Source of the DNA: Halarcobacter sp.
GTDB lineage: Bacteria > Campylobacterota > Campylobacteria > Campylobacterales > Arcobacteraceae
Assembly: GCA_048571215.1 (NCBI GenBank)
Contig: CP182352.1
Location: 1,568,001-1,632,000 of the forward strand
Direction of reading: 5' to 3'
DNA length: 64,000 nt
Notes under the pieces: model-generated
The model's input: only the letters and a program-made list of their open reading frames with translations
Databases searched by the model: none
Told to the model about the DNA's origin: nothing
Position numbers and translations under genes: made by a program
In this document: positions 9,781 to 24,722 of the stretch, piece after piece
Position numbering within the stretch: position 1 is the first letter of the stretch
Layout of the letters: every line of letters begins with the position of its first letter

Positions 9781-9999
9781 ATGGCAAAAGAGTTCAACCC
9801 AGATGATTTTTTTAGTGTAAAAACAGTAGAAGAAATCGTACCAAAATTTAAGCACCTATATAATCAAAACTACCAAGAACTAAGTTTAAATGAAGAACTA
9901 GTAAAACTAAACTACGAAATCACTTCACCTGAGTACAAAGACAAAAGCTTTGCAAAGTTAGAAGAGTATTTTAAATATGAAGTTGATACGATAGTCTAA
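9781..9999 (+). CDS. Small acidic hypothetical protein
   Basis: 72-aa ORF, host-like codon use, upstream GAG RBS-like site. Confidence 0.6.
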   Translation: MAKEFNPDDFFSVKTVEEIVPKFKHLYNQNYQELSLNEELVKLNYEITSPEYKDKSFAKLEEYFKYEVDTIV

Positions 10000-10203: not shown

Positions 10204-10770
10204 TTAAGTATCTAATACCTTCTTTATCAAATATGCACTATGTAATCTTTCAATCAATGTAAATTGATTATTAATAGGAGAATGTATTTTATTTTCGAAC
10301 AGTTTTATCTTTTCTAAGCCTACATTTCCATTTGTATAAATTAAAATAGGTATATTTTCATCAACACTTTTCAATAACTTAAACCATTCTTCTAATGTTT
10401 TATCATCTTCTGCAAATAAAATAATTATAGAAAAGTTATTTAATTTAATTTTTTCATTACAATTATTTATGTTCTTCATATTTCTAAATTTAGAAAATAT
10501 AGCCATATTATTAATTTTATTTTTATTATCATTACAAATTAAAATCTTACTTTCTCTAAAATCTTTAATATTTTTTATATCATTTAAATGCTCTAAAATT
10601 TCATTTCTATATCCATCAAACATTGAAGATAATTTATCTTTAATATTAGCATTAAAATAATCAGAAGTTTTTTTATCACATATAGTCTTAATAAGAAAAT
10701 ATATTAATACACCTAAGAATCCAATAATCAAGGCTAAAACTACTTTTGATATCAAACTTTCAAATTCCAT
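10204..10770 (-). CDS. CRISPR-associated membrane-anchored protein (N-terminal TM helix, helical linker, small alpha/beta receiver/Rossmann-like domain); candidate type III effector
   Basis: TM VVLALIIGFLGVLIYFLI; strands KILIC, FSIIILF, IPILIYT; last gene of the cas operon, ATG 2 nt after upstream stop. Confidence 0.6.
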   Translation of the reverse strand: MEFESLISKVVLALIIGFLGVLIYFLIKTICDKKTSDYFNANIKDKLSSMFDGYRNEILEHLNDIKNIKDFRESKILICNDNKNKINNMAIFSKFRNMKNINNCNEKIKLNNFSIIILFAEDDKTLEEWFKLLKSVDENIPILIYTNGNVGLEKIKLFENKIHSPINNQFTLIERLHSAYLIKKVLDT

Positions 10771-10772
10771 TT

Positions 10773-11832
10773 TTATTTTCCTCTTTTTCCATTAGATTTT
10801 TTTCTCTCAATAAAATAACTTGAATAATCATAAGACTCAATTGAATTATCAATTTTATGAAGGATAGAATTTATCTGAGTATAAATACTTTCTAAATCTT
10901 TTATTTCATCCTTCACAATAACTCTATTATGAGCTATTGCATTTCTTATCTTGGATAGTTTTTTCCACTTCACATCAAATAAATTTTGTTTATTTTCTAA
11001 TAAATTGCAAAAATATAATTCCCAATTTGTTTTAGGTAAAAACTTTTCTAAATCATCTATACAAGTTAATTTTCTCTCTAAGTATCTATTAATCAACTCT
11101 TTTTTTTCTTCTTTCGTTAATCTCTCATATGGTATAAACAAAAAATCCCTTATTTCTTTAAAGTCTACATAATACAAAATATCTCCACACTTGTAATCTA
11201 AATTATTATTTTTTCTTTTAACTCCATTTTTAATTTCTGTGGGAATAGTTTTGTCATACCAATTTGCACCCATAAAACGATACATTACCTTTGTTAAAAC
11301 TTTTCGCATCATAAAGCTTTGGATAATATTCATTACATATATATGCCTCATATGAATTAGATAGAACTAAGGGCTTATTTTTAGTTTCATCCATAATTAC
11401 TTTTTCTAGATACTCTTTTATATTTTCAAATAAACTAATTTTTTTTATACTATAAGGTGTATTCTTATAAGATATTTCCGAATCATCAACTTTTGGTTCA
11501 TTTTCATTTGTGCCAGTAATGTCCATTTCTTCTTCATAGAATAAATCACATTTTTTTTCAATATTATCAAATGTAATGGAAAAAATGAATATTCCTTCTT
11601 TTAGCATTTTAAATTGATAATTAAACTTTATTTCTTCATCATCATTAATAAAAAAATATTTACCATCTTTATTTATTTCTATAGATATATCTATTTCTTT
11701 TCCATCAATTTCAAATCTACTAATACTTTCCAAATTTCCTAAAATAATATGATTAAGAAAAAAATCTTCTTCTTTTTTGATTTTTGAAATAGCATTAACA
11801 TCAATTAAATATTCTAATTCGTAATTATTCAT
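10773..11832 (-). pseudogene. HEPN-domain RNase candidate (Swt1/Apea-like) split into two overlapping ORFs (11254-11832, 10773-11351) by a frameshift near 11310
   Basis: C-terminal ORF has RNAIAH (R-x4-H); YYPKLY in frame 1 is followed after one extra base by MRKVLTKVM in frame 2; second ORF lacks an evident RBS. Confidence 0.7.
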
Positions 11833-11834
11833 AA

Positions 11835-12935
11835 CTATTCTTCTATCTCACACAATACCCATCCAAAAGGTAGTAAGGTATCAATACTATCTTCATTCTC
11901 TCCAAAAAGCCATGTAGTTGTTTCTTCTTCTAAGTTTTCCCAAATATTTTTCTTTCGTTTAGGACCGCCACCACTAACTTTTACTTTTATATTTCTTAAA
12001 CCATCTATTGTTACAGTTCTTGCTCCACTATGTTTTCCAATCCGTAATAAAAATTGATTTTTATTTTTAAACTCAAAGTTTAAATACTTTTCATAAAAAT
12101 CTTCTCTAAAATAATCAATTATAAAATCATATTCTAAAGAATCTTTATATAAATTTTTTTGTCTAAACATAGAATCAAATAATTCATAATAATGATCATT
12201 GCATGATTTTATTATCTTTTCAATTGTTATTTGCTCTTTAGAATTATAATCTTTAATTTGTAAAGATGTTTCAAATTCAGATTTTTCACATATAACTTCA
12301 ATTTTTGTTGATGGTCCTTGATTGTCATCTTCAAATCTCTCTTTATTTAAAGAAAAACCTATAAGAGAGGAACTATTTAGTATTTTTGTATCAGATATAG
12401 AAATATTTTTAAAAATACTTTCACTTGGCATTTGAAAAGTTTCTTTCAATTTTGAGTAGTTACTATTTTTGTAAATATATTCTTGATATGCAGTTGAGAT
12501 TGAGCCTTTGATACTACTTCCTGTAATATATGGATTACCAGTTATTTCATCTTTTATTGTTTTTTGAATTTGAAATTGGTTTATTACAGGTTTTTTTATT
12601 CCTGAGCCTTCAAATTTAGATATTATACCTATTCTCCTATTATACTCTTTTTCGATACCCTGGGTAACTTTCACTTTTAAGGTAAAAATATTTTTTACTA
12701 TATCTTTTCGTTTTTTTATAAATTTATTTATAGAAGATAATGCTAAGTTATCTTCTCTTGTTACTAATTCTTCAAATTTTGTTTTATCTTCTTTTGATAA
12801 ACTTTCAAAAAAACTAAATTCATCAAATTCATAAAGGAAACCATTATCTATAACGAAGTTTGTAGGTTCATATGATTCTCCTATGCCAATATGCATAGGA
12901 GTTAAAAGAGTCATTTTTAATTTATAAGTCTTCAT
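11835..12935 (-). CDS. csm5: Type III-A RAMP Csm5
   Basis: LTPMHIG, PYITGSSIKGSI, LRIGKHSG, LPFGWV. Confidence 0.9.
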   Translation of the reverse strand: MKTYKLKMTLLTPMHIGIGESYEPTNFVIDNGFLYEFDEFSFFESLSKEDKTKFEELVTREDNLALSSINKFIKKRKDIVKNIFTLKVKVTQGIEKEYNRRIGIISKFEGSGIKKPVINQFQIQKTIKDEITGNPYITGSSIKGSISTAYQEYIYKNSNYSKLKETFQMPSESIFKNISISDTKILNSSSLIGFSLNKERFEDDNQGPSTKIEVICEKSEFETSLQIKDYNSKEQITIEKIIKSCNDHYYELFDSMFRQKNLYKDSLEYDFIIDYFREDFYEKYLNFEFKNKNQFLLRIGKHSGARTVTIDGLRNIKVKVSGGGPKRKKNIWENLEEETTTWLFGENEDSIDTLLPFGWVLCEIEE

Positions 12936-13831
12936 TTTATTTCCTTTAAAGGAAAGAGTATAGAATACCCTTGATGTATAGCTTTTTCAAATGATGATAT
13001 ACCTTTAATAGCTTTACCATCATAAAATCTCTCTTTAGTGAATTTATATTTAATCACTGTTGAGTTTTTTGCTAAAAGTATAGGTTTTTTAAATGGATTA
13101 TCATTATCTACTTGGCTGGAGTTTTTACCAAATTTTGTTAAAGGAGAATAATATAATTCTTCACACTCTAAATTTTCCAATGAAATAGAAGATAATGTCA
13201 TATACGTTGTTGTTTCATTTTTTAAACTTATTTCTTCAAAATCTTCTTTTTGAAATATAAACCTACCTTTTCCTATAGAAGTTTTTTTGCCATAACCAAA
13301 CTCTGATATAAACTCCATACACTCTAATAATTTTTCTTTTTTAAATTGTTTTGATAATAAAAAATATATATCAAATTCAAAATCTTTTATTGGATATTCT
13401 TCTATACCAAAAGGTGAGAATCTATCTTTTTCGGTCCTAAAAGCAAGATAATTTAATGAGTTTTTCATAACATTTATTTTTTTATTTAAATCAACTCTTC
13501 CCTCTATATTATTGATATTTTTAGCATTTATATAATTTCCATTTTCTAAATCTTTTATTTTCAGCCACAATTTTTTTGAATTATTTTTCTTTTCTTTACT
13601 ATTTTCTTTTAAAAATTTCATAGGCATATTTGGCTTTGGAAGATAACCTTTAGGGAAGCCATCTGAAACAATCAAAAAGGGATTTTTATCATATTCTAAA
13701 AGTAATTCTTCTAACTTATCTTCACCATACTTATTTTTAATTGCCCAACATATTTGACCAAATAGAGTATCTCCTTGCAAAGATGTTGCAAAATTAGAAA
13801 TAGGCTTTATAGTAAGTTTATAAAGTTTCAT
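12932..13831 (-). CDS. csm4: Type III-A RAMP Csm4 (Cas5 group)
   Basis: GDTLFGQICW, VSDGFP..YLPKP, GYGKKTSIGKGRF; start moved to ATG 13831. Confidence 0.9.
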   Translation of the reverse strand: MKLYKLTIKPISNFATSLQGDTLFGQICWAIKNKYGEDKLEELLLEYDKNPFLIVSDGFPKGYLPKPNMPMKFLKENSKEKKNNSKKLWLKIKDLENGNYINAKNINNIEGRVDLNKKINVMKNSLNYLAFRTEKDRFSPFGIEEYPIKDFEFDIYFLLSKQFKKEKLLECMEFISEFGYGKKTSIGKGRFIFQKEDFEEISLKNETTTYMTLSSISLENLECEELYYSPLTKFGKNSSQVDNDNPFKKPILLAKNSTVIKYKFTKERFYDGKAIKGISSFEKAIHQGYSILFPLKEIK

Positions 13832-13833
13832 CA

Positions 13834-14511
13834 CTATTCCCATTTATCTTTATTACTAAAACTCACTCTTCCATAACCTCTTGTACCGTTTCCACCTAAA
13901 TAATCATCTTCAATAAGTTCTAAACCTTTTTTCACTATATCTTTTAATTTATCTTGTTCATCGTCAAATGGTTTATCTTCAATAATTTTTAAAGAAATAA
14001 TATAATTAAACTTTACCCCCCTACATACTCTTTCAGTTTGTCTTGGATGTTTTGCTGTTCCATTTGTTCTATCTATTACATTTTCATATTTTGATTCGGT
14101 AAGATTTTTTATATCTTTTTGTTCAATAAGACTACAATCAGAAAAGCTAAGTCTTGTAACACCATAATTTTCTCTTTTTTCTTCAGAATTCGCATCTCCA
14201 AAAAGTTTTATTAGATTTACTGCTTTCTCTTTTTTTCCCTCTTTTTCAAAAACTACATCAGAAAAATATTTTGAAGAAAAAGGTTTCCCTTTTTCCTTAT
14301 CATCTCTTCCAACATTAACCAATCCAAAATGCCATTCTAGTAAACTTCTCATCTTACCTTTTATACTACTTCCAGGGACATAAGGTTTATCAGTATTTAT
14401 ATCTTTTATAACACTATTACTAACACCTCCAATTTTCATAACATCATCACCAGCACCAATATGTAAACCTGTTAATACTTCTAACTCTCCAACTAATTTT
14501 AATATTTTCAT
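13834..14511 (-). CDS. csm3: Type III-A RAMP Csm3 (Cas7 group), catalytic Asp apparently replaced by Ser
   Basis: TGLHIGAG, PYVPGSSIKGKMRSLLE, PRQTERV, YLGGNGTRGYG; IGGVSNSVIKD in place of IGxxDxxVIKD; start ATG 14511 with GAGGGG RBS. Confidence 0.93.
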   Translation of the reverse strand: MKILKLVGELEVLTGLHIGAGDDVMKIGGVSNSVIKDINTDKPYVPGSSIKGKMRSLLEWHFGLVNVGRDDKEKGKPFSSKYFSDVVFEKEGKKEKAVNLIKLFGDANSEEKRENYGVTRLSFSDCSLIEQKDIKNLTESKYENVIDRTNGTAKHPRQTERVCRGVKFNYIISLKIIEDKPFDDEQDKLKDIVKKGLELIEDDYLGGNGTRGYGRVSFSNKDKWE

Positions 14512-14512
14512 T

Positions 14513-14875
14513 TTAATCTCTCCCCTCAAAAAAACCTAGCACAGCTTCAAAAAAAAGTTTAAAACAAAGCAAAGTATCTTTTATATTTTCTTTTGTAATT
14601 AAACTTACACATTGACTCATCATATCCTGAAATTCTTTTGATACAACACCCCTACTTCTTGCATATGATACTTTTGAATTTAACATTTTTACAAAAGGAA
14701 TAATATTTTCAACATCTTCATTATTTTTATTCAACTTATTTTCTAAATCCATTATATATTCATAAAAATTTCTAAGTTGTGTTTTTTTAGTTTTACCTAT
14801 AGCTAAAGCCCATTCTTGCGCAACTTTATTAAAAAGTTCTTCATTTTTTGTATAATCTAATACTATATTTTGCAT
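14513..14875 (-). CDS. csm2: Type III-A small subunit Csm2 (Cas11)
   Basis: TQLRNFY, SKVSYARSR, FFEAVLGF; position between cas10 and csm3. Confidence 0.9.
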   Translation of the reverse strand: MQNIVLDYTKNEELFNKVAQEWALAIGKTKKTQLRNFYEYIMDLENKLNKNNEDVENIIPFVKMLNSKVSYARSRGVVSKEFQDMMSQCVSLITKENIKDTLLCFKLFFEAVLGFFEGRD

Positions 14876-16441
14876 CTAGTCTCTCCCTTTATAAATAAAT
14901 TCACTTATTACCATCTTTGAAGCTTTTGGATTTTTCTCTATTTGTGTATCTAAGACTTTATATAAATCCTCATAACTTTCTTTTTTCATATTTCTTCTAA
15001 AACTATAATTTAGTTTTGATTTCCACATAGTAGATAAAACATCACCCTCTTTAACTTTTATTGACATTTCTATTAATTCTAAAAGAGAATAAAAAAATGC
15101 ACTTTTTTTATCTTCTTCTTCGATTTTACTAAGCTCATTTTCTAATACTTTTTTTACATCAATATACTCTTGCCACTTTACAGTTTCATCAAAAAGTGTA
15201 ATAGAGTCTTTATCTTGGTTTTCTTTTGATTTTTCAAGTAACTCTTCAATCTTAGAAGACATATAAGATATTGGTACATTTTCTTTACTTAGCATAATTG
15301 CTACACTTAATGTAAGGTTTTCGTTTGAAAAATTTCTAAATTCTTTATATATTTTTTCTGAAAAATCTATTATTTCATTCCATGCACCTATAATAAAAAA
15401 GTCATCTCCACCTGTAAAAACTACATAAGTATTTTTATAGTTTTCTTCTAAAAATTCTGGTACTTTTTGAGTGAAAAAGTTGTTTAAAGTATAAGAAAAA
15501 TAAATATAGTTTTCATAACTATCAAAAGCATTACTCTTATCTTTAATAAATTCTCCTAAACTATCAACATCACCTTTTATTACAGCTAAGTTTTCTGCAC
15601 CTTCTGTATTTTTTGCTAAATCATCAAAACTATAAGCCACACCTTTTTCGTTTGATTTTACATAAGATTTAATTTTCCAAAATTCTTTTAGGCTTTTAAA
15701 TTCATCATTTTCATTTTCTGAAAATGAAACATGGTAGTTATTGAAAATCTTTATACCACTATCATCATTTGAAATTTTCATATAATTTTTACTTGCTAAA
15801 TTTTCACCTAACTTTATAAAATCGTCACAAATTTTACAAACTTCTTTTTCCTCTTGTATTCTTCTTATTCCACAGGTTTTACATAGTGTTTGATTAGTTG
15901 GAACATCAACATAATCCAAAACTGTATTTTGATTTTGTAAATTAAACTTATTAAACTTTGCAAACTCCATCTTTTCGTTTAGTTTTTCTCTGATTTCTCT
16001 AAATTCTTTAGGATTAATTAGATATGATTTTAAAATATCCATGGATACAAGCTTTACCCCTGCTAGGGCAAAAAAGTTTTCTATAAAGTAATTATCTACT
16101 TCTTTTTGAATCTCTTCAATTTTATTTTTGTCAACTCTTGGAGATAGTATTTCTATTTTTCCAGCCTCACTAAAAATAATATTTTCTTCCTCTAGTCCTA
16201 AAACTTTTAGTATATATAGGGATAATACTTTTGTAAATATTTGTACATAAGCTGATTTTGCTCTTAATACTTTATAAGCTTTTGATGATGGTACATTTTC
16301 AAAAATAAAGTTTTGTATTCCATAAAAATCTGCACAAATGATAGTCAACTCATTGTCTTTTAAAATATCATCTATTTTTAAAATATCTTTTTTAAATAAT
16401 TCACTATATTTTTTATTAAATACATTTTTAACTTCTATCAT
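14876..16441 (-). CDS. cas10: Cas10/Csm1, short form lacking HD domain, cyclase motifs intact
   Basis: ADFYGIQNFIF (Palm1) ~35 residues from the start, CxxC..CxxC, KGDVDSLG and TGGDD (Palm2); only ~521 aa. Confidence 0.93.
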   Translation of the reverse strand: MIEVKNVFNKKYSELFKKDILKIDDILKDNELTIICADFYGIQNFIFENVPSSKAYKVLRAKSAYVQIFTKVLSLYILKVLGLEEENIIFSEAGKIEILSPRVDKNKIEEIQKEVDNYFIENFFALAGVKLVSMDILKSYLINPKEFREIREKLNEKMEFAKFNKFNLQNQNTVLDYVDVPTNQTLCKTCGIRRIQEEKEVCKICDDFIKLGENLASKNYMKISNDDSGIKIFNNYHVSFSENENDEFKSLKEFWKIKSYVKSNEKGVAYSFDDLAKNTEGAENLAVIKGDVDSLGEFIKDKSNAFDSYENYIYFSYTLNNFFTQKVPEFLEENYKNTYVVFTGGDDFFIIGAWNEIIDFSEKIYKEFRNFSNENLTLSVAIMLSKENVPISYMSSKIEELLEKSKENQDKDSITLFDETVKWQEYIDVKKVLENELSKIEEEDKKSAFFYSLLELIEMSIKVKEGDVLSTMWKSKLNYSFRRNMKKESYEDLYKVLDTQIEKNPKASKMVISEFIYKGRD

Positions 16442-17259
16442 CAAATCTCCTTAACCTCTATTTTCCCAAGTCCAAAAACTGTTTGTTTTCCTACATTTAA
16501 TAGTTCTGCTATTTTTAGTATTTTATAGTTTTGTTCACTTAAATCTTTTACAACTAAACTTCCCATTACACCATCAAATTTCATTTTTGTTTTTTGGGGA
16601 CTACTATATCTTGTAAGATTTTTTTTATAGAGGTTTTTATTTACTACTTTATACTCTTTTGTTACTTCTAGTTTTGGCGCATTTGGATAGATGTATTCAT
16701 ATCTTTTTCTACTTGAAAGCAAGATATCAAAAAGGTCTAAACTATCATCATATATAAGTTTATTTTCTTTTTTTATTCTTATGGGTGTTAGTATATTTAT
16801 AGCTACGTCTTTTTTTGTTTCACTCTCTTTATACTCTTTTTGTGTAATATTTTTTAAATCAAAGGTTTCGTTTTCATAAACCAAAATATCATTTACATAT
16901 ATTTTAAACTCATTAAAATACTTATTCTCTTTTCCAAGACCAATAGAAGTTAATAACTTATGAAAACTTGAAAGTATAAAAGGAAGTTGTTCACATACCT
17001 CATCAAAAAGATAAAAAGAAAAATCATAAGATTTGTTGCCAAGAGATATATCAAATCTATATTTATGATAATTATCTTCCAAATAAAATGTGTAAAAAAG
17101 ACAATTATCTTTTGCAAAACAATTTTCACATTCGTATGTTGGATTTATGCAAACCACTTTTTTAAGAGCATACCCCAAAGCCCCACGAAGCTGACTTCCA
17201 GTAAAATAAGGAGGCATATACTCTTCATATATTTTTATATCTATTTTGTAATATTTCAT
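16441..17259 (-). CDS. cas6: CRISPR endoribonuclease Cas6
   Basis: GSQLRGALG, Cys cluster, C-terminal VGKQTVFGLG Gly-rich loop. Confidence 0.9.
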   Translation of the reverse strand: MKYYKIDIKIYEEYMPPYFTGSQLRGALGYALKKVVCINPTYECENCFAKDNCLFYTFYLEDNYHKYRFDISLGNKSYDFSFYLFDEVCEQLPFILSSFHKLLTSIGLGKENKYFNEFKIYVNDILVYENETFDLKNITQKEYKESETKKDVAINILTPIRIKKENKLIYDDSLDLFDILLSSRKRYEYIYPNAPKLEVTKEYKVVNKNLYKKNLTRYSSPQKTKMKFDGVMGSLVVKDLSEQNYKILKIAELLNVGKQTVFGLGKIEVKEI

Positions 17260-17262
17260 CAA

Positions 17263-17478: not shown

Positions 17479-19597
17479 GTAGAGACCTGACATATAAGGG
17501 ATTAAAACGACTATCAAGTGCTTTTATATTTTTATTATCTACTGTAGAGACCTGACATATAAGGGATTAAAACTTAAAAACAGACATCTATATTCTCCTT
17601 ATTGTTTGTGTAGAGACCTGACATATAAGGGATTAAAACTTACTAGAGCTGTAAATTTTACAGAGTTACCAGAGTGTAGAGACCTGACATATAAGGGATT
17701 AAAACGAGTTATTATGAATTTTTATTGATTTTGTTAAAAAGTAGAGACCTGACATATAAGGGATTAAAACTATTATTACTTAATATTTTATTTTATAACA
17801 ATTTTTCTGTAGAGACCTGACATATAAGGGATTAAAACTACTATTTAAAGCCATGATATCCCCCTTACTTTTCTGTAGAGACCTGACATATAAGGGATTA
17901 AAACGTAGATAACTAAACATTCTATTATTTTATCAACTTGTAGAGACCTGACATATAAGGGATTAAAACCTGGGTGAAAAACTTGGAGTGGTGGGAAGAA
18001 ATATGTAGAGACCTGACATATAAGGGATTAAAACAAATAAGATAATCCCTCTGCAATAGTATTAAATCCGTAGAGACCTGACATATAAGGGATTAAAACT
18101 GAAAAAGAGAAACACTAGCAGAATGAATATAATTACGTAGAGACCTGACATATAAGGGATTAAAACATTTGTAATTAATCCATATCTTGTAATGCTCCTT
18201 GTAGAGACCTGACATATAAGGGATTAAAACGCATCTTTGTATATGTCTTTCCATATCCAAAAAGCTAGTAGAGACCTGACATATAAGGGATTAAAACATA
18301 ATCACCAATTAGCTTTAAATCTTCTTTTTTATAGGTAGAGACCTGACATATAAGGGATTAAAACCAATTTTACTTAGTTCAAAAAGACTGTAATCTTCAT
18401 TGTAGAGACCTGACATATAAGGGATTAAAACTCCACTAAGTCTTTTTTGGAAGTCTTTAAGTTAAGAGTAGAGACCTGACATATAAGGGATTAAAACATG
18501 ACACTTGAAACTTTTTTTAACACAAACGAAACAGTAGAGACCTGACATATAAGGGATTAAAACTTAAAAGCGTGAAGTTGATCTATTAGTTCTGTACCGT
18601 AGAGACCTGACATATAAGGGATTAAAACTATAGTTCCACATCTTTTGTCTAATACTTATTTTGTAGAGACCTGACATATAAGGGATTAAAACATTAAAGG
18701 TTGAGCTGTATCATAGTTTACTCCTAGTGTAGAGACCTGACATATAAGGGATTAAAACTAGCATATGCTATTTTGTTTTCGACACTAGATAAGTAGAGAC
18801 CTGACATATAAGGGATTAAAACTTTACATAAGTTTCATTTAGTGTTAAATATGCTTCTGTAGAGACCTGACATATAAGGGATTAAAACTTTGAAAATGCA
18901 AAAGGTCTTTTATGTTCCGCATCATTGTAGAGACCTGACATATAAGGGATTAAAATTGAAATAAAATTTATCAAACCAAATAATAAACCTAGTAGAGACC
19001 TGACATATAAGGGATTAAAATGCAGATACAACACAAAAACCATTATCTTTGAATGCTGTAGAGACCTGACATATAAGGGATTTAAAATACCTATGCCTAA
19101 TTGTTGTCTACCTTGTACTTGTAGTAGAGACCTGACATATAAGGGATTAAAATTTCCAAATATGGTGAACAGTAGGTGCAATATCATGTAGAGACCTGAC
19201 ATATAAGGGATTAAAATAATTTTACTGTTGCACTTACACTAGTTGCAGCCATTGTAGAGACCTGACATATAAGGGATTAAAATAATGATGTAAATACTCG
19301 TAATCAGGACAATCAAACTGTAGAGACCTGACATATAAGGGATGTTTTTAATAAATAAGGAATAACGAATAATGAATAATCTTCTTCAACTTTTCATTTT
19401 TCACTTTTCATTATTCATTTATATTGACCTGACATATAAGGAATGTTTTTAATGAATAATGAATAATCTTCTTTAATTTTTCATTTTTCACTTTTCATTA
19501 TTCATTTATATTGACCTGCCATATAAGGGATTAAAACGATACACACATATCAAATTGTTTCTCTTCAAAGCTAGTAGAGACCTGACATATAAGGGAT
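17479..19597 (+). CRISPR. CRISPR array: 30-bp repeat GTAGAGACCTGACATATAAGGGATTAAAAC, 28 full repeats plus disrupted trailer repeats, 29 spacers of ~34-38 bp
   Basis: Repeats counted by eye from 17479 to 19254, partial copies at 19320, 19426, 19513, 19574; 3' end ATTAAAAC resembles the Cas6 8-nt handle. Confidence 0.98.
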
Positions 19598-19677
19598 GTT
19601 TTTAATGAATAAGGAATAACGAATAATGAATAATCTTCTTCAATTTTTCATTTTTCACTTTTCATTATTCATTACTA
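19344..19677. repeat. Three copies of a 68-82-bp heptamer-based inverted-repeat element interleaved with CRISPR repeat fragments
   Basis: GTTTTTAAT(GAATAAT-like)n-CTTCTT-(TTTTCAY)n TATTCATT starting at 19344, 19445, 19598. Confidence 0.88.
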
Positions 19678-19678
19678 T

Positions 19679-20512
19679 CTAATAATCCCTTCCATAAAGC
19701 TCTGAGGCTTCTTGTATTACTAAAAAAGCATCGGGATCGTATATATTTACTATCTCTTTTAGTTTTTGTAGCTTTGGAAAATCAACTATAACCAAGATTA
19801 GGGTTTTAGAACCATTTTGATTTAGATTTACTCCATGTAAGATTGTTCCATGTTCCCCTAAACTATCAAATATATGCGTTGATAATTCATCTACATTATT
19901 TGTTACTATGCTAACAGCTTTTTGTGAAGGATTTCCAGAAAGAAGCATATCAACTATTTTAGATGTAATATATACACCTATAACACTATATAAAGCTTGT
20001 TCAACATCTCCATATACCAAAGCAGCAGCTACCATTGTGGCTCCATCTATTATTAAAATAATTTGTGAAGTTTTAAACTTGGTTTTTGCAGATATGATCT
20101 CTGCAACTATTGTTGTACCACCTGTTGAAGCTCTACCCAATATAATAAGCCCAACCCCTAATCCAATTAATAATCCACCAAATAAAGATGCAAGTATAGT
20201 TTCATGTGTTGCTGCTGGTAGGGATAAGAATTCTTTTAAAAAATCAGTAAATACAGAAATCAGACCTATACTTATCAATGTTTTGATTAAAAAAAATTTT
20301 CCAAAATATTTAAATCCTATAATAATTAAAGGAGTACTAACAATAACAATCCAAGTTCCCAGTGTAAAAATAGGAAATAAAACATGCAAAAGTTGTGCAG
20401 GACCTATTCCACCACCTGTAATAAGATTATTAGGATTTAAAAAAGCTATTGTAGAAAATGCAATACAAAAACATCCAACAACTATAAAAACTAAACTTTT
20501 CATCTCTTTCAT
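19679..20512 (-). CDS. YitT family membrane protein
   Basis: PNNLITGG, ASTGGT, C-terminal DPDAFLVI. Confidence 0.88.
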   Translation of the reverse strand: MKEMKSLVFIVVGCFCIAFSTIAFLNPNNLITGGGIGPAQLLHVLFPIFTLGTWIVIVSTPLIIIGFKYFGKFFLIKTLISIGLISVFTDFLKEFLSLPAATHETILASLFGGLLIGLGVGLIILGRASTGGTTIVAEIISAKTKFKTSQIILIIDGATMVAAALVYGDVEQALYSVIGVYITSKIVDMLLSGNPSQKAVSIVTNNVDELSTHIFDSLGEHGTILHGVNLNQNGSKTLILVIVDFPKLQKLKEIVNIYDPDAFLVIQEASELYGRDY

Positions 20513-22721: not shown

Positions 22722-23096
22722 ATGATAATAAAAAACTTAAGAATAGAAAATGGTTGGTCACAAGAAAAATTAGCTGAAATCACTGGATTGAGTTTAAGAA
22801 CTATACAAAGAGTAGAAAAAGAGGACAAAGCTAGCTTGGAATCTCTAAATCTTTTAGCTAATGCTTTTAGCTTAGATATTAAACAACTACAAGATAAATT
22901 AAAAAATAAACCTTTTAAAACTGAAACTGAAACTAAAAATAATCATAAGAAAATAATCACAATTTTTATTGCTGTAAACTTACTACTTATTACTATAAAT
23001 CTTTTAACAAACTCTAGTCACTTATGGTTTATCTATCCATTATTAGGATGGGGAATTCCACTTTTTTATAAAATATATATAAAAGAAAAGCTTTAA
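22722..23096 (+). CDS. XRE-family HTH protein with C-terminal 2TM domain
   Basis: GWSQEKLAEITGLSLRTIQRVE; WFIYPLLGWG. Confidence 0.88.
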   Translation: MIIKNLRIENGWSQEKLAEITGLSLRTIQRVEKEDKASLESLNLLANAFSLDIKQLQDKLKNKPFKTETETKNNHKKIITIFIAVNLLLITINLLTNSSHLWFIYPLLGWGIPLFYKIYIKEKL

Positions 23097-24337
23097 AATC
23101 TACTATTTTTTATCACTTTTTCTATCTTTTTTTTATCCACTTTAAGATTTTTTGCTTCTTGTTTAAATCTACTTATAAAATACTCTTTTATGTTTTTTAC
23201 TAACTCCTCTATCTCTTTGTCACTTCCTATTGAAAACATCTTTGAAACAGCTTTTATATCCTCTATACTAAAATCATCTCTTTTTCCATTTATACTCATT
23301 TGGTGTTTTGCTGTATAGTCATTGCCTTTATTATATGTGATATCATATAAAGGTGCAGTTTTCCAAACTCCTTTTTCATCCATCAAAAAAGAGAAGTTTT
23401 TTGTATGATCATCTTGATTACAAGTAATTACATTGTATAACATATGGATAAATGCACTCTCCAATTGCTGTCTATCTTTAGTAAGGTATTCAACTACTCT
23501 TAAATACTCTTCGTAAGAGTAAGAACCTGGTATATTAAAATTTGTATGAGTAAGCCCGCATAAAGAGTGCATATGTATTTTTTTATCTTCTATAATATCA
23601 AATCTTTTTACTAAAAGATGACTAAAATCTCTTTCGTGAAAAATCTCTACATCTGCTACGTTTAAATCAAGCTCTTTTGCTATTTTCATATAGATATACT
23701 CAACTTTTCCATAATCTGCTGGAACATAATCTTTTCCAACACCATCAAATTTTATAAGATAGTTCTCAAAACCTTTTTTAAAAGGTAGTCTTCCTGATAC
23801 TATTTCATTTGTAGTTTTATTCCATTGAATAACCGCTTTTGCTCTAGCTCCCCCTGCACTTCCTCCTGATGATATTAGTTCAGGAATTGCAACTGTAATA
23901 TCCCCTTTTATAATCTTTCTAGCATCATCAACCAAAGATTTTATCTCTAAAGATTCTTTTAAAATCTCTGTTGGTTCATTTGGAATATACTCCAAAGCTC
24001 CCATACCAGTTTTTCCTATATATGCTAACTTTTGTATTGATGATAATTCATACTCATTTATCCCTTTTTTTGCATAAAATCTTTTTATAACCTCATTTCC
24101 AAATTTATCAGGTAAAGAATCAAAAAATACTCCAGCTAAACCTTCAAAAAATCTATCATCACTATTGTTATAAACAGCAGTTGTCTCTAAAGGCAATTTT
24201 ATAGGGGATATCTCTAAACCACTATTTTTAAACTCATCTTCATATTCAAAATATATATTATCTTTCTCATCTAAAGATAAAAACCCAACTATTTGCCCAT
24301 AAAGTTGTACAATCAAAGAATCATTATTCGTTTTCAT
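23093..24337 (-). CDS. hipA: HipA-family Ser/Thr kinase toxin
   Basis: DSLPDKFG, GSAGGARAKA P-loop, NQDDHTKNFSF, APLYDIT. Confidence 0.92.
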   Translation of the reverse strand: MKTNNDSLIVQLYGQIVGFLSLDEKDNIYFEYEDEFKNSGLEISPIKLPLETTAVYNNSDDRFFEGLAGVFFDSLPDKFGNEVIKRFYAKKGINEYELSSIQKLAYIGKTGMGALEYIPNEPTEILKESLEIKSLVDDARKIIKGDITVAIPELISSGGSAGGARAKAVIQWNKTTNEIVSGRLPFKKGFENYLIKFDGVGKDYVPADYGKVEYIYMKIAKELDLNVADVEIFHERDFSHLLVKRFDIIEDKKIHMHSLCGLTHTNFNIPGSYSYEEYLRVVEYLTKDRQQLESAFIHMLYNVITCNQDDHTKNFSFLMDEKGVWKTAPLYDITYNKGNDYTAKHQMSINGKRDDFSIEDIKAVSKMFSIGSDKEIEELVKNIKEYFISRFKQEAKNLKVDKKKIEKVIKNSRF

Positions 24338-24722
24338 TTTTTGCCTTTAACTTATCTAACAAAATTCCTATTCTTGTGGGTTTTGATTCATTTTTTGATT
24401 TAGAAGAATCTATTTTTTCTTTTTTGCTTGCTCTTTTTCTTTCAGGTTTTTTTATATTTTTGTTTAATACTTTTTCTTTTGGTGAAAAACTGTTTTTAAT
24501 AAATAGATTGTTTAACTCCATAGTTTTACCCAATGCTTTTGTTATATTAATAAAGTTTTCAAAACTTCCTTTGCCATTTTTTTCAAATATCTTATATGTA
24601 GATAAAGATAAACCTGATTTTAAAGCCATATCCTCTTGAGTAATATTTTGCCTTAATCTTTCATCTTTTATTTTATGTGCAAACTCTTTTGATATCTCTT
24701 GTGTAGTACTAAACTCATTCAT
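24324..24722 (-). CDS. XRE HTH antitoxin (HipB-like)
   Basis: RLRQNITQEDMALKSGLSLSTYKIFE; overlaps hipA start. Confidence 0.82.
   Translation of the reverse strand: MNEFSTTQEISKEFAHKIKDERLRQNITQEDMALKSGLSLSTYKIFEKNGKGSFENFINITKALGKTMELNNLFIKNSFSPKEKVLNKNIKKPERKRASKKEKIDSSKSKNESKPTRIGILLDKLKAKNENE

Follow-up and report, generated by a model that had tools for sequence, protein, structure and literature searches.

The stretch analysed here, 64,000 nucleotides of a Halarcobacter sp. genome (contig CP182352.1, positions 1,568,001 to 1,632,000; hereafter the window), carries a type III-A CRISPR operon. Its last gene, at 10204..10770 on the minus strand, encodes P0001, a 188-residue protein in which one transmembrane (TM) helix precedes a receiver-like (REC) domain. 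Our findings suggest that this TM-REC protein is probably a membrane effector gated by a cyclic nucleotide, whichever that may be. With less assurance, we lean towards cyclic tri-adenylate (cA3) as the gating signal and towards an effector shared by type III systems and the cyclic oligonucleotide-based antiphage signalling system (CBASS). The broader proposal, that a degenerate receiver has become a cA3 sensor within an effector module that, like NucC, passes from one kind of system to the other (CBASS and type III), seems to us evenly balanced.

Architecture and fold of P0001

P0001 contains a single hydrophobic segment (residues 9-28; best 19-residue Kyte-Doolittle mean 2.68). In an AlphaFold 2 model built on a 14-row family alignment (pLDDT 85), a helix spanning residues 2-73 extends from the TM segment, and residues 75-187 form a domain of five strands and five helices. 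We accordingly describe the protein as a TM helix at about 7-28, a stalk to 73 and a pseudo-receiver at 74-188. Hydropathy and model agree with the first-pass annotation, which had read from the letters one N-terminal TM helix, a helical linker and a strand/helix domain; the 188-residue open reading frame (ORF) and all the motifs that it quoted are present, on a strand that it left unnamed. The fold search that it had suggested for a predicted monomer returned a REC fold, the matches listed being receivers, including 3lua. CARF is absent among them, and P0001 has no CARF profile match; of the proposed parallel with Cam1, the single TM helix stands and a CARF sensor is unlikely. All Pfam receiver matches lie below the cut-off, the family alignment (A2) found nothing below E 0.4 among PDB sequences, and ESM Atlas feature matches reach at most 0.81 and serve as leads only. 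Longer or fused TM-REC forms number 0 among 8000 scored candidates, which is weak evidence.

Phospho-site positions were placed by mapping strand ends on the model and the 14-row alignment. At the end of strand 3, Asp occurs in 1 of 14 rows at position 119 and in none at 120; after strand 5, Lys is missing and Asn stands instead in 12 of 14 rows. As modelled, P0001 is a REC fold without the phospho-acceptor Asp and the Lys, at what we take to be the canonical receiver positions, and is not a canonical response regulator. The residues conserved in the family, namely N80-D81, Y145 and N167-x-x-x-T171-L172-x-E174-R/K175, sit at strand ends on the REC active-site face of the model.

A GAGGA element stands 5' of the P0001 start, which lies 2 nt past the stop of a HEPN ORF (10773), and the next ORF (9781-9999) is convergent, which bears out the annotation's placing of the gene beside the HEPN gene and at the end of the cas operon. 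Since conserved homologues were found, P0001 is a real gene rather than a chance ORF; a promoter scan gave a signal at chance level.

Distribution of the family

Homology searches yielded 5 proteins, including P0001, and 16 representatives among 1.84 billion, one of these a spurious repeat protein. P0011 was rejected as a repeat artefact, and the fragments P0008-P0010, P0020 and P0021 were excluded from alignment A2. The host belongs to the Arcobacteraceae, a family whose records also came up in the searches. Among 184 genomes of the host's family, nine have a Cas10 match. Four of them (the host G000, G148, G151 and G060) form a Cas10 subclade (66-100%) in which the TM-REC gene follows csm5 in every case, and the remaining 180 family genomes contain no credible TM-REC copy. 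Of the 5 other Cas10-bearing family genomes, the 4 whose loci were inspected (one a cut contig) have Csx1, Csx23 and Csx20 in varied sets, as does one plasmid locus with a similar Cas10. Across 401 genomes of the phylum, credible TM-REC matches were confined to G000 and G151. Weak genome matches in G112, G119, G004, G431 and G469 proved to be unrelated ORFs and were dropped. A metagenome scan gave four loci from 72 candidate stretches (L016, L017, L018 and L019), of which L019 is a further type III-A locus; L022 was left uncounted, as it may duplicate a locus already included. The viral contigs and plasmids searched contained no TM-REC relatives.

Genomic context is available for eight loci: five type III, two CBASS and one neither. 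In all four related type III loci TM-REC is the sole non-core gene. P0001 is nearer to the CBASS copies (45% identity) than to a second CRISPR-linked lineage comprising L010, L011 and L019 (28-30%). The 19-row tree gives no direction of exchange between CRISPR and CBASS. The split between type III and CBASS is one weak branch (43/49), and a topology that keeps the five type III rows together, apart from the three further rows of known context, is not rejected (approximately unbiased test, p-AU 0.2). Strong topology rejections were discarded because they were forced by rows without context.

Several features of these loci deserve a separate record. Cas10 proteins of L009, L011 and L019 are 93-95% identical, yet their csm2-csm5 and TM-REC cassettes differ (L009/window versus L010/L011/L019), with 27% identity between the two cassette types for Csm5 and 28-30% for TM-REC; judging from these sequences, the operon seems to have had its back half replaced in one piece. 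In L010 (4107-6500) a stop breaks up cas10, and cas6 falls short of its usual length; no damage is apparent in csm2-csm5, in the TM-REC gene or in the array. The TM-REC copy at L019:5872-6432 is about 13 stalk residues shorter than those of L010 and L011, with the frame kept.

CBASS context and the candidate signal

Two short type II CBASS operons, L016 (8992-11049) and L017 (3-1859, on a contig of 1.9 kb that is truncated at either end), consist of a TM-REC gene followed directly 3' by a CD-NTase (cGAS/DncV-like nucleotidyltransferase) gene and an E2 gene. Their TM-REC proteins are 45% identical to P0001 and 51% to one another, and their cyclases share 61% identity. In both operons the TM-REC gene is translationally coupled to the cyclase gene and encodes the only effector candidate so coupled, as is expected of a type II CBASS effector. 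None of the CBASS effector models of PADLOC matches the L016 TM-REC protein. A WYL regulator gene and an unassigned membrane gene of 304 residues lie upstream of the L016 operon, and type I restriction genes lie downstream. REC-type CBASS sensors, or TM-REC in a CBASS context, did not turn up in the literature searched, which was thin on subscription papers; work by Burroughs and Aravind from 2020 on nucleotide-linked Rossmannoid domains, reportedly named NARF, a word absent from the papers listed, might already describe the family in CBASS.

Among PDB entries, a single one, E. coli CdnC (E 1e-9), the product of which we take to be cA3, matches the L016 cyclase (PADLOC PDLC00803). Its 23 plasmid relatives are 28-32% identical to it, and a NucC-type gene lies directly downstream of the cyclase in 5 of 6 plasmid loci opened, with NucC identity checked in two; four of the plasmid cyclases were scanned, and their best PADLOC model is also that of the cyclases of L016 and L017. 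NucC is activated by cA3, according to the consulted part of PMC11229360. No relatives of the L016 cyclase were found in viral contigs, nor, at 1e-30, in the 401 genomes of the phylum; the controls of the latter search likewise gave no match. A single-sequence fold of this cyclase was set aside (pLDDT 40). The CBASS context, with a cyclase family linked to NucC, provides an independent line of evidence for nucleotide sensing and for cA3.

The type III side is compatible with this assignment. The window Cas10 (522 residues) has no HD domain and an intact GGDD motif, and it aligns with solved Csm1 proteins solely behind their HD region. Its Arg152 and Asn156 occupy the helix-17 positions of the Trp and Ser of cA6-making (cyclic hexa-adenylate) enzymes. 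In the consulted part of PMC11734703, Trp371/Ser375 mark cA6 synthesis, and the enzyme making cA3 and cyclic tetra-adenylate (cA4) has Arg at the first position; we infer that chain 9g9a is that enzyme, at an offset of 19 residues. From Arg152/Asn156 it therefore follows that the window Cas10 would make cA3 or cA4, not cA6. No ring-nuclease gene appears in the ORF lists of the five type III loci with TM-REC (the host genome was not searched for Csx20), and a signal other than cA4 is therefore weakly favoured. Csx20 is present in 3 of 4 fully seen sister loci, while only 34% of Csx1 loci have a ring nuclease. Our best guess for the signal is cA3, with cA4 as its main rival.

Proposed mechanism

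Target RNA switches on the cyclase of type III Cas10, and infection leads both Cas10 and CD-NTases to synthesise cyclic oligonucleotides. P0001 would act as the effector of the type III-A system of the window, in which target RNA would activate Cas10. A cyclic oligoadenylate, most likely cA3, may then bind the cytoplasmic pseudo-receiver domains of a P0001 homo-oligomer, where the conserved residues listed above are candidates for the ligand site. The long helix would transmit binding to the single TM helices. On the analogy of Cam1 and Csx23, these are predicted to depolarise the inner membrane or make it permeable, and to put the infected cell into arrest. The same family would serve as the effector of short type II CBASS, with its cyclase and E2 protein.

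If this is correct, operons of the L016 type (TM-REC, CD-NTase and E2) are CBASS with an effector class absent from the libraries and papers searched, and CBASS gains that class. The three-gene operon would also allow the published prediction for the Cam2 family, to which we return below, to be tested without rebuilding the Csm complex.

Alternative explanations

The same membrane mechanism could respond to cA4, the tetramer that gates Cam1 and Csx23, or to another cyclic nucleotide. In its favour, type III systems are reported to signal most often through cA4, sister Cas10 proteins (42-47% identity) serve Csx1, Csx23 and Csx20, and helix 17 permits either product. We nevertheless rate this as unlikely, given that the cyclase family linked to CBASS pairs with NucC and, a weaker point, that ring nucleases are unseen in the five TM-REC loci as against the Csx20 genes of the sister loci.

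A little less likely is a nucleotide binder that is not itself toxic, serving as a membrane sponge, an off-switch or a relay to a partner elsewhere, such as a TM-SAVED protein or a host protein. The REC fold normally works through protein contacts, and the single TM helix, the TM-SAVED gene in the host genome and the HEPN gene adjoining the window copy would all suit such a role. It sits poorly with the sole non-core place of TM-REC in the four related type III loci, with its place as sole cyclase-coupled candidate in L016 and L017, and with Cam1 and Csx23, which act alone through a single TM helix (PMC11229360, consulted part).

Slightly more doubtful again is an accessory role independent of nucleotides, either as a tether of the Csm complex, a membrane role proposed for such proteins by Shmakov et al. 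(10.1101/270033), or as a stand-alone defence gene drifting into defence loci. The stand-alone L018 copy, and the intact gene beside a broken cas10 in L010, speak for it. A Csm tether would, however, be useless beside a CD-NTase, the contexts share cyclic oligonucleotide synthesis, and for a Cas10 without HD the only remaining output would be RNA cleavage by Csm3. An ordinary phospho-receiver of an orphan two-component system is very improbable: the REC fold, N80-D81 at the acidic-pair position and T146 in 7 of 14 rows fit it, but the strand-3 Asp and the Lys are lost, Pfam receiver matches stay under the cut-off and no kinase gene was seen in the type III loci.

Several observations weigh against a cA3-gated effector shared by the two kinds of system. 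Nucleotide binding, the oligomeric state and membrane damage are what we infer, and 11 of the 19 tree rows have no context. Only two lineages stand behind the five type III loci, L010, L011 and L019 being mutually 85-91% identical, and the TM-REC gene of L010 is intact though its cas6 and cas10 are broken. The L018 copy (35% identity) lies between housekeeping genes on a 3.9-kb contig that shows no cyclase. On the side of the signal, one of the six opened cyclase loci lacks NucC, the low identity of the NucC-linked cyclases to that of L016 makes transfer of the product uncertain, and the helix-17 Arg also occurs in neighbouring systems with cA4 effectors and cannot separate cA3 from cA4. P0001 itself has no match to any PADLOC model, including C3a55, Mem_02 and Mem_03.

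The operon and its genomic surroundings

All genes of the operon lie on the minus strand, in the order array, cas6 (16441..17262), cas10 (14876..16444), csm2 (14513..14875), csm3 (13834..14529), csm4 (12932..13843), csm5 (11835..12935), a broken HEPN gene and the TM-REC gene. In the array (17479..19279, minus strand), a 26-nt repeat core is present in 27 exact copies, with degenerate copies on to about 19600; every exact copy in the genome lies there. At its leader-distal end (window 19300-19680), degenerate repeats alternate with three copies of one short inverted-repeat element of ~60 bases. The host genome has a single Cas10. At G000:C1:3244975-3258000 lies a type I-like cas operon that includes cas4, cas1 and cas2 and comes with an array of its own. 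Since the genome's only cas1 is there, the array of the type III-A system must depend on that operon for new spacers. A HipA-like kinase with a helix-turn-helix partner lies close to the CRISPR locus (window 23093-24722), and a similar gene adjoins the type III loci L042 and L043.

The HEPN gene is a broken passenger in the operon. Its 3' piece (10773..11351, minus strand) is Swt1-like and carries an RNAIAH motif. Genuine similarity to intact relatives sets in at ORF residue 13-15, and the piece shares 31% identity with an intact 386-residue protein, from residue 128 onward. The putative 5' piece of the same gene (11254..11832, minus strand) alone has no significant match to those relatives. 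By eye, the first HEPN-helix motif, intact in two plasmid relatives, is split across two frames near 11305-11315 with the loss of a few residues. Four DNA runs show the identical break, and contigs of runs X1 and X2 carry the same letters, but this DNA may itself stem from those runs; no RNA run was listed as a carrier of the sequence. Intact relatives lie outside CRISPR loci, one of them within a BREX (bacteriophage exclusion) operon, and the gene is absent from the four other type III loci carrying TM-REC.

With the HEPN gene split over two frames, the description of P0001 as the only intact candidate effector is right for the locus. The genome also holds a separate CBASS locus (G000:C1:2210798-2213378), in which a cyclase in two overlapping ORFs (245 and 292 residues) precedes a TM-SAVED gene, whose protein might respond to the Cas10 product. 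Profiles for Csx1 CARF, Csx1 HEPN and Card1 had no match in the host genome, and NucC had none either, in a search whose controls likewise gave no match.

Comparison with known systems

Cam2 was proposed by Hoikkala, Graham & White (2024; PMC11229360, consulted part) as an untested family predicted to be a cA3 effector and a trimer; the cA3 prediction is based on three cases of neighbouring genes, and a REC domain sensing cyclic oligonucleotides is named there as a priority for study. The literature searched contained no experimental follow-up on Cam2 or on a REC-type effector. As far as that description goes, Cam2 and P0001 share an N-terminal TM region, a C-terminal REC-like domain, a match to 3lua, the absence of a kinase, and a type III locus with a cyclase-positive, HD-less Cas10. 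The likeness to Cam2 that the first-pass annotation had suggested holds for the TM region (by hydropathy and model), the REC-like domain and the locus type. Taken as a whole, its interpretation is partly supported. P0001 is probably Cam2 or a sister group, likened through the published description, and is best filed as a new member of this proposed family. The part of that description consulted places Cam2 in CRISPR loci only, whereas close relatives of P0001 also occur in CBASS operons, the context that is new here.

C3a55, labelled an ABC permease in the consulted part of Shah et al. (PMC6546367), and the PADLOC families Mem_02 and Mem_03 are, like TM-REC, type III-linked membrane proteins of unclear role. 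Their models match 4, 2 and 3 of the 14 family rows, respectively, but weakly (best E 3.5e-5 to 2.7e-4), and the C3a55 model also matches in 2 of 14 control genomes, which makes these matches a lead only. Mem_03 has been labelled a possible diverged CARF, unlike the REC of P0001. One representative of C3a55 comes from Nostoc, and of the three SAVED-CHAT loci in the Cam2 supplement two are cyanobacterial, so that Cam2 and C3a55 may overlap.

Cam1 and Csx23 are single-TM membrane effectors gated by cA4 (PMC11229360, consulted part). P0001 resembles them in its single N-terminal TM helix, its candidate cytoplasmic sensor and membrane damage as presumed sole output, and differs in that this sensor is REC instead of CARF (Cam1) or the Csx23 domain. 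None of the 14 family rows matches the Csx23 profiles, a comparison that the annotation had proposed; the Csx23 proteins of sister loci score E 1e-13 to 1e-24. Among CBASS TM effectors, TM-SAVED Cap14 and Cap15 share with the TM-REC genes of L016 and L017 the coupling of the effector gene to a CD-NTase. If our reading is right, REC, among the commonest signalling folds, would join CARF, SAVED and STING as a sensor of immune second messengers, in a family which, like NucC, is used by both CBASS and type III CRISPR systems.
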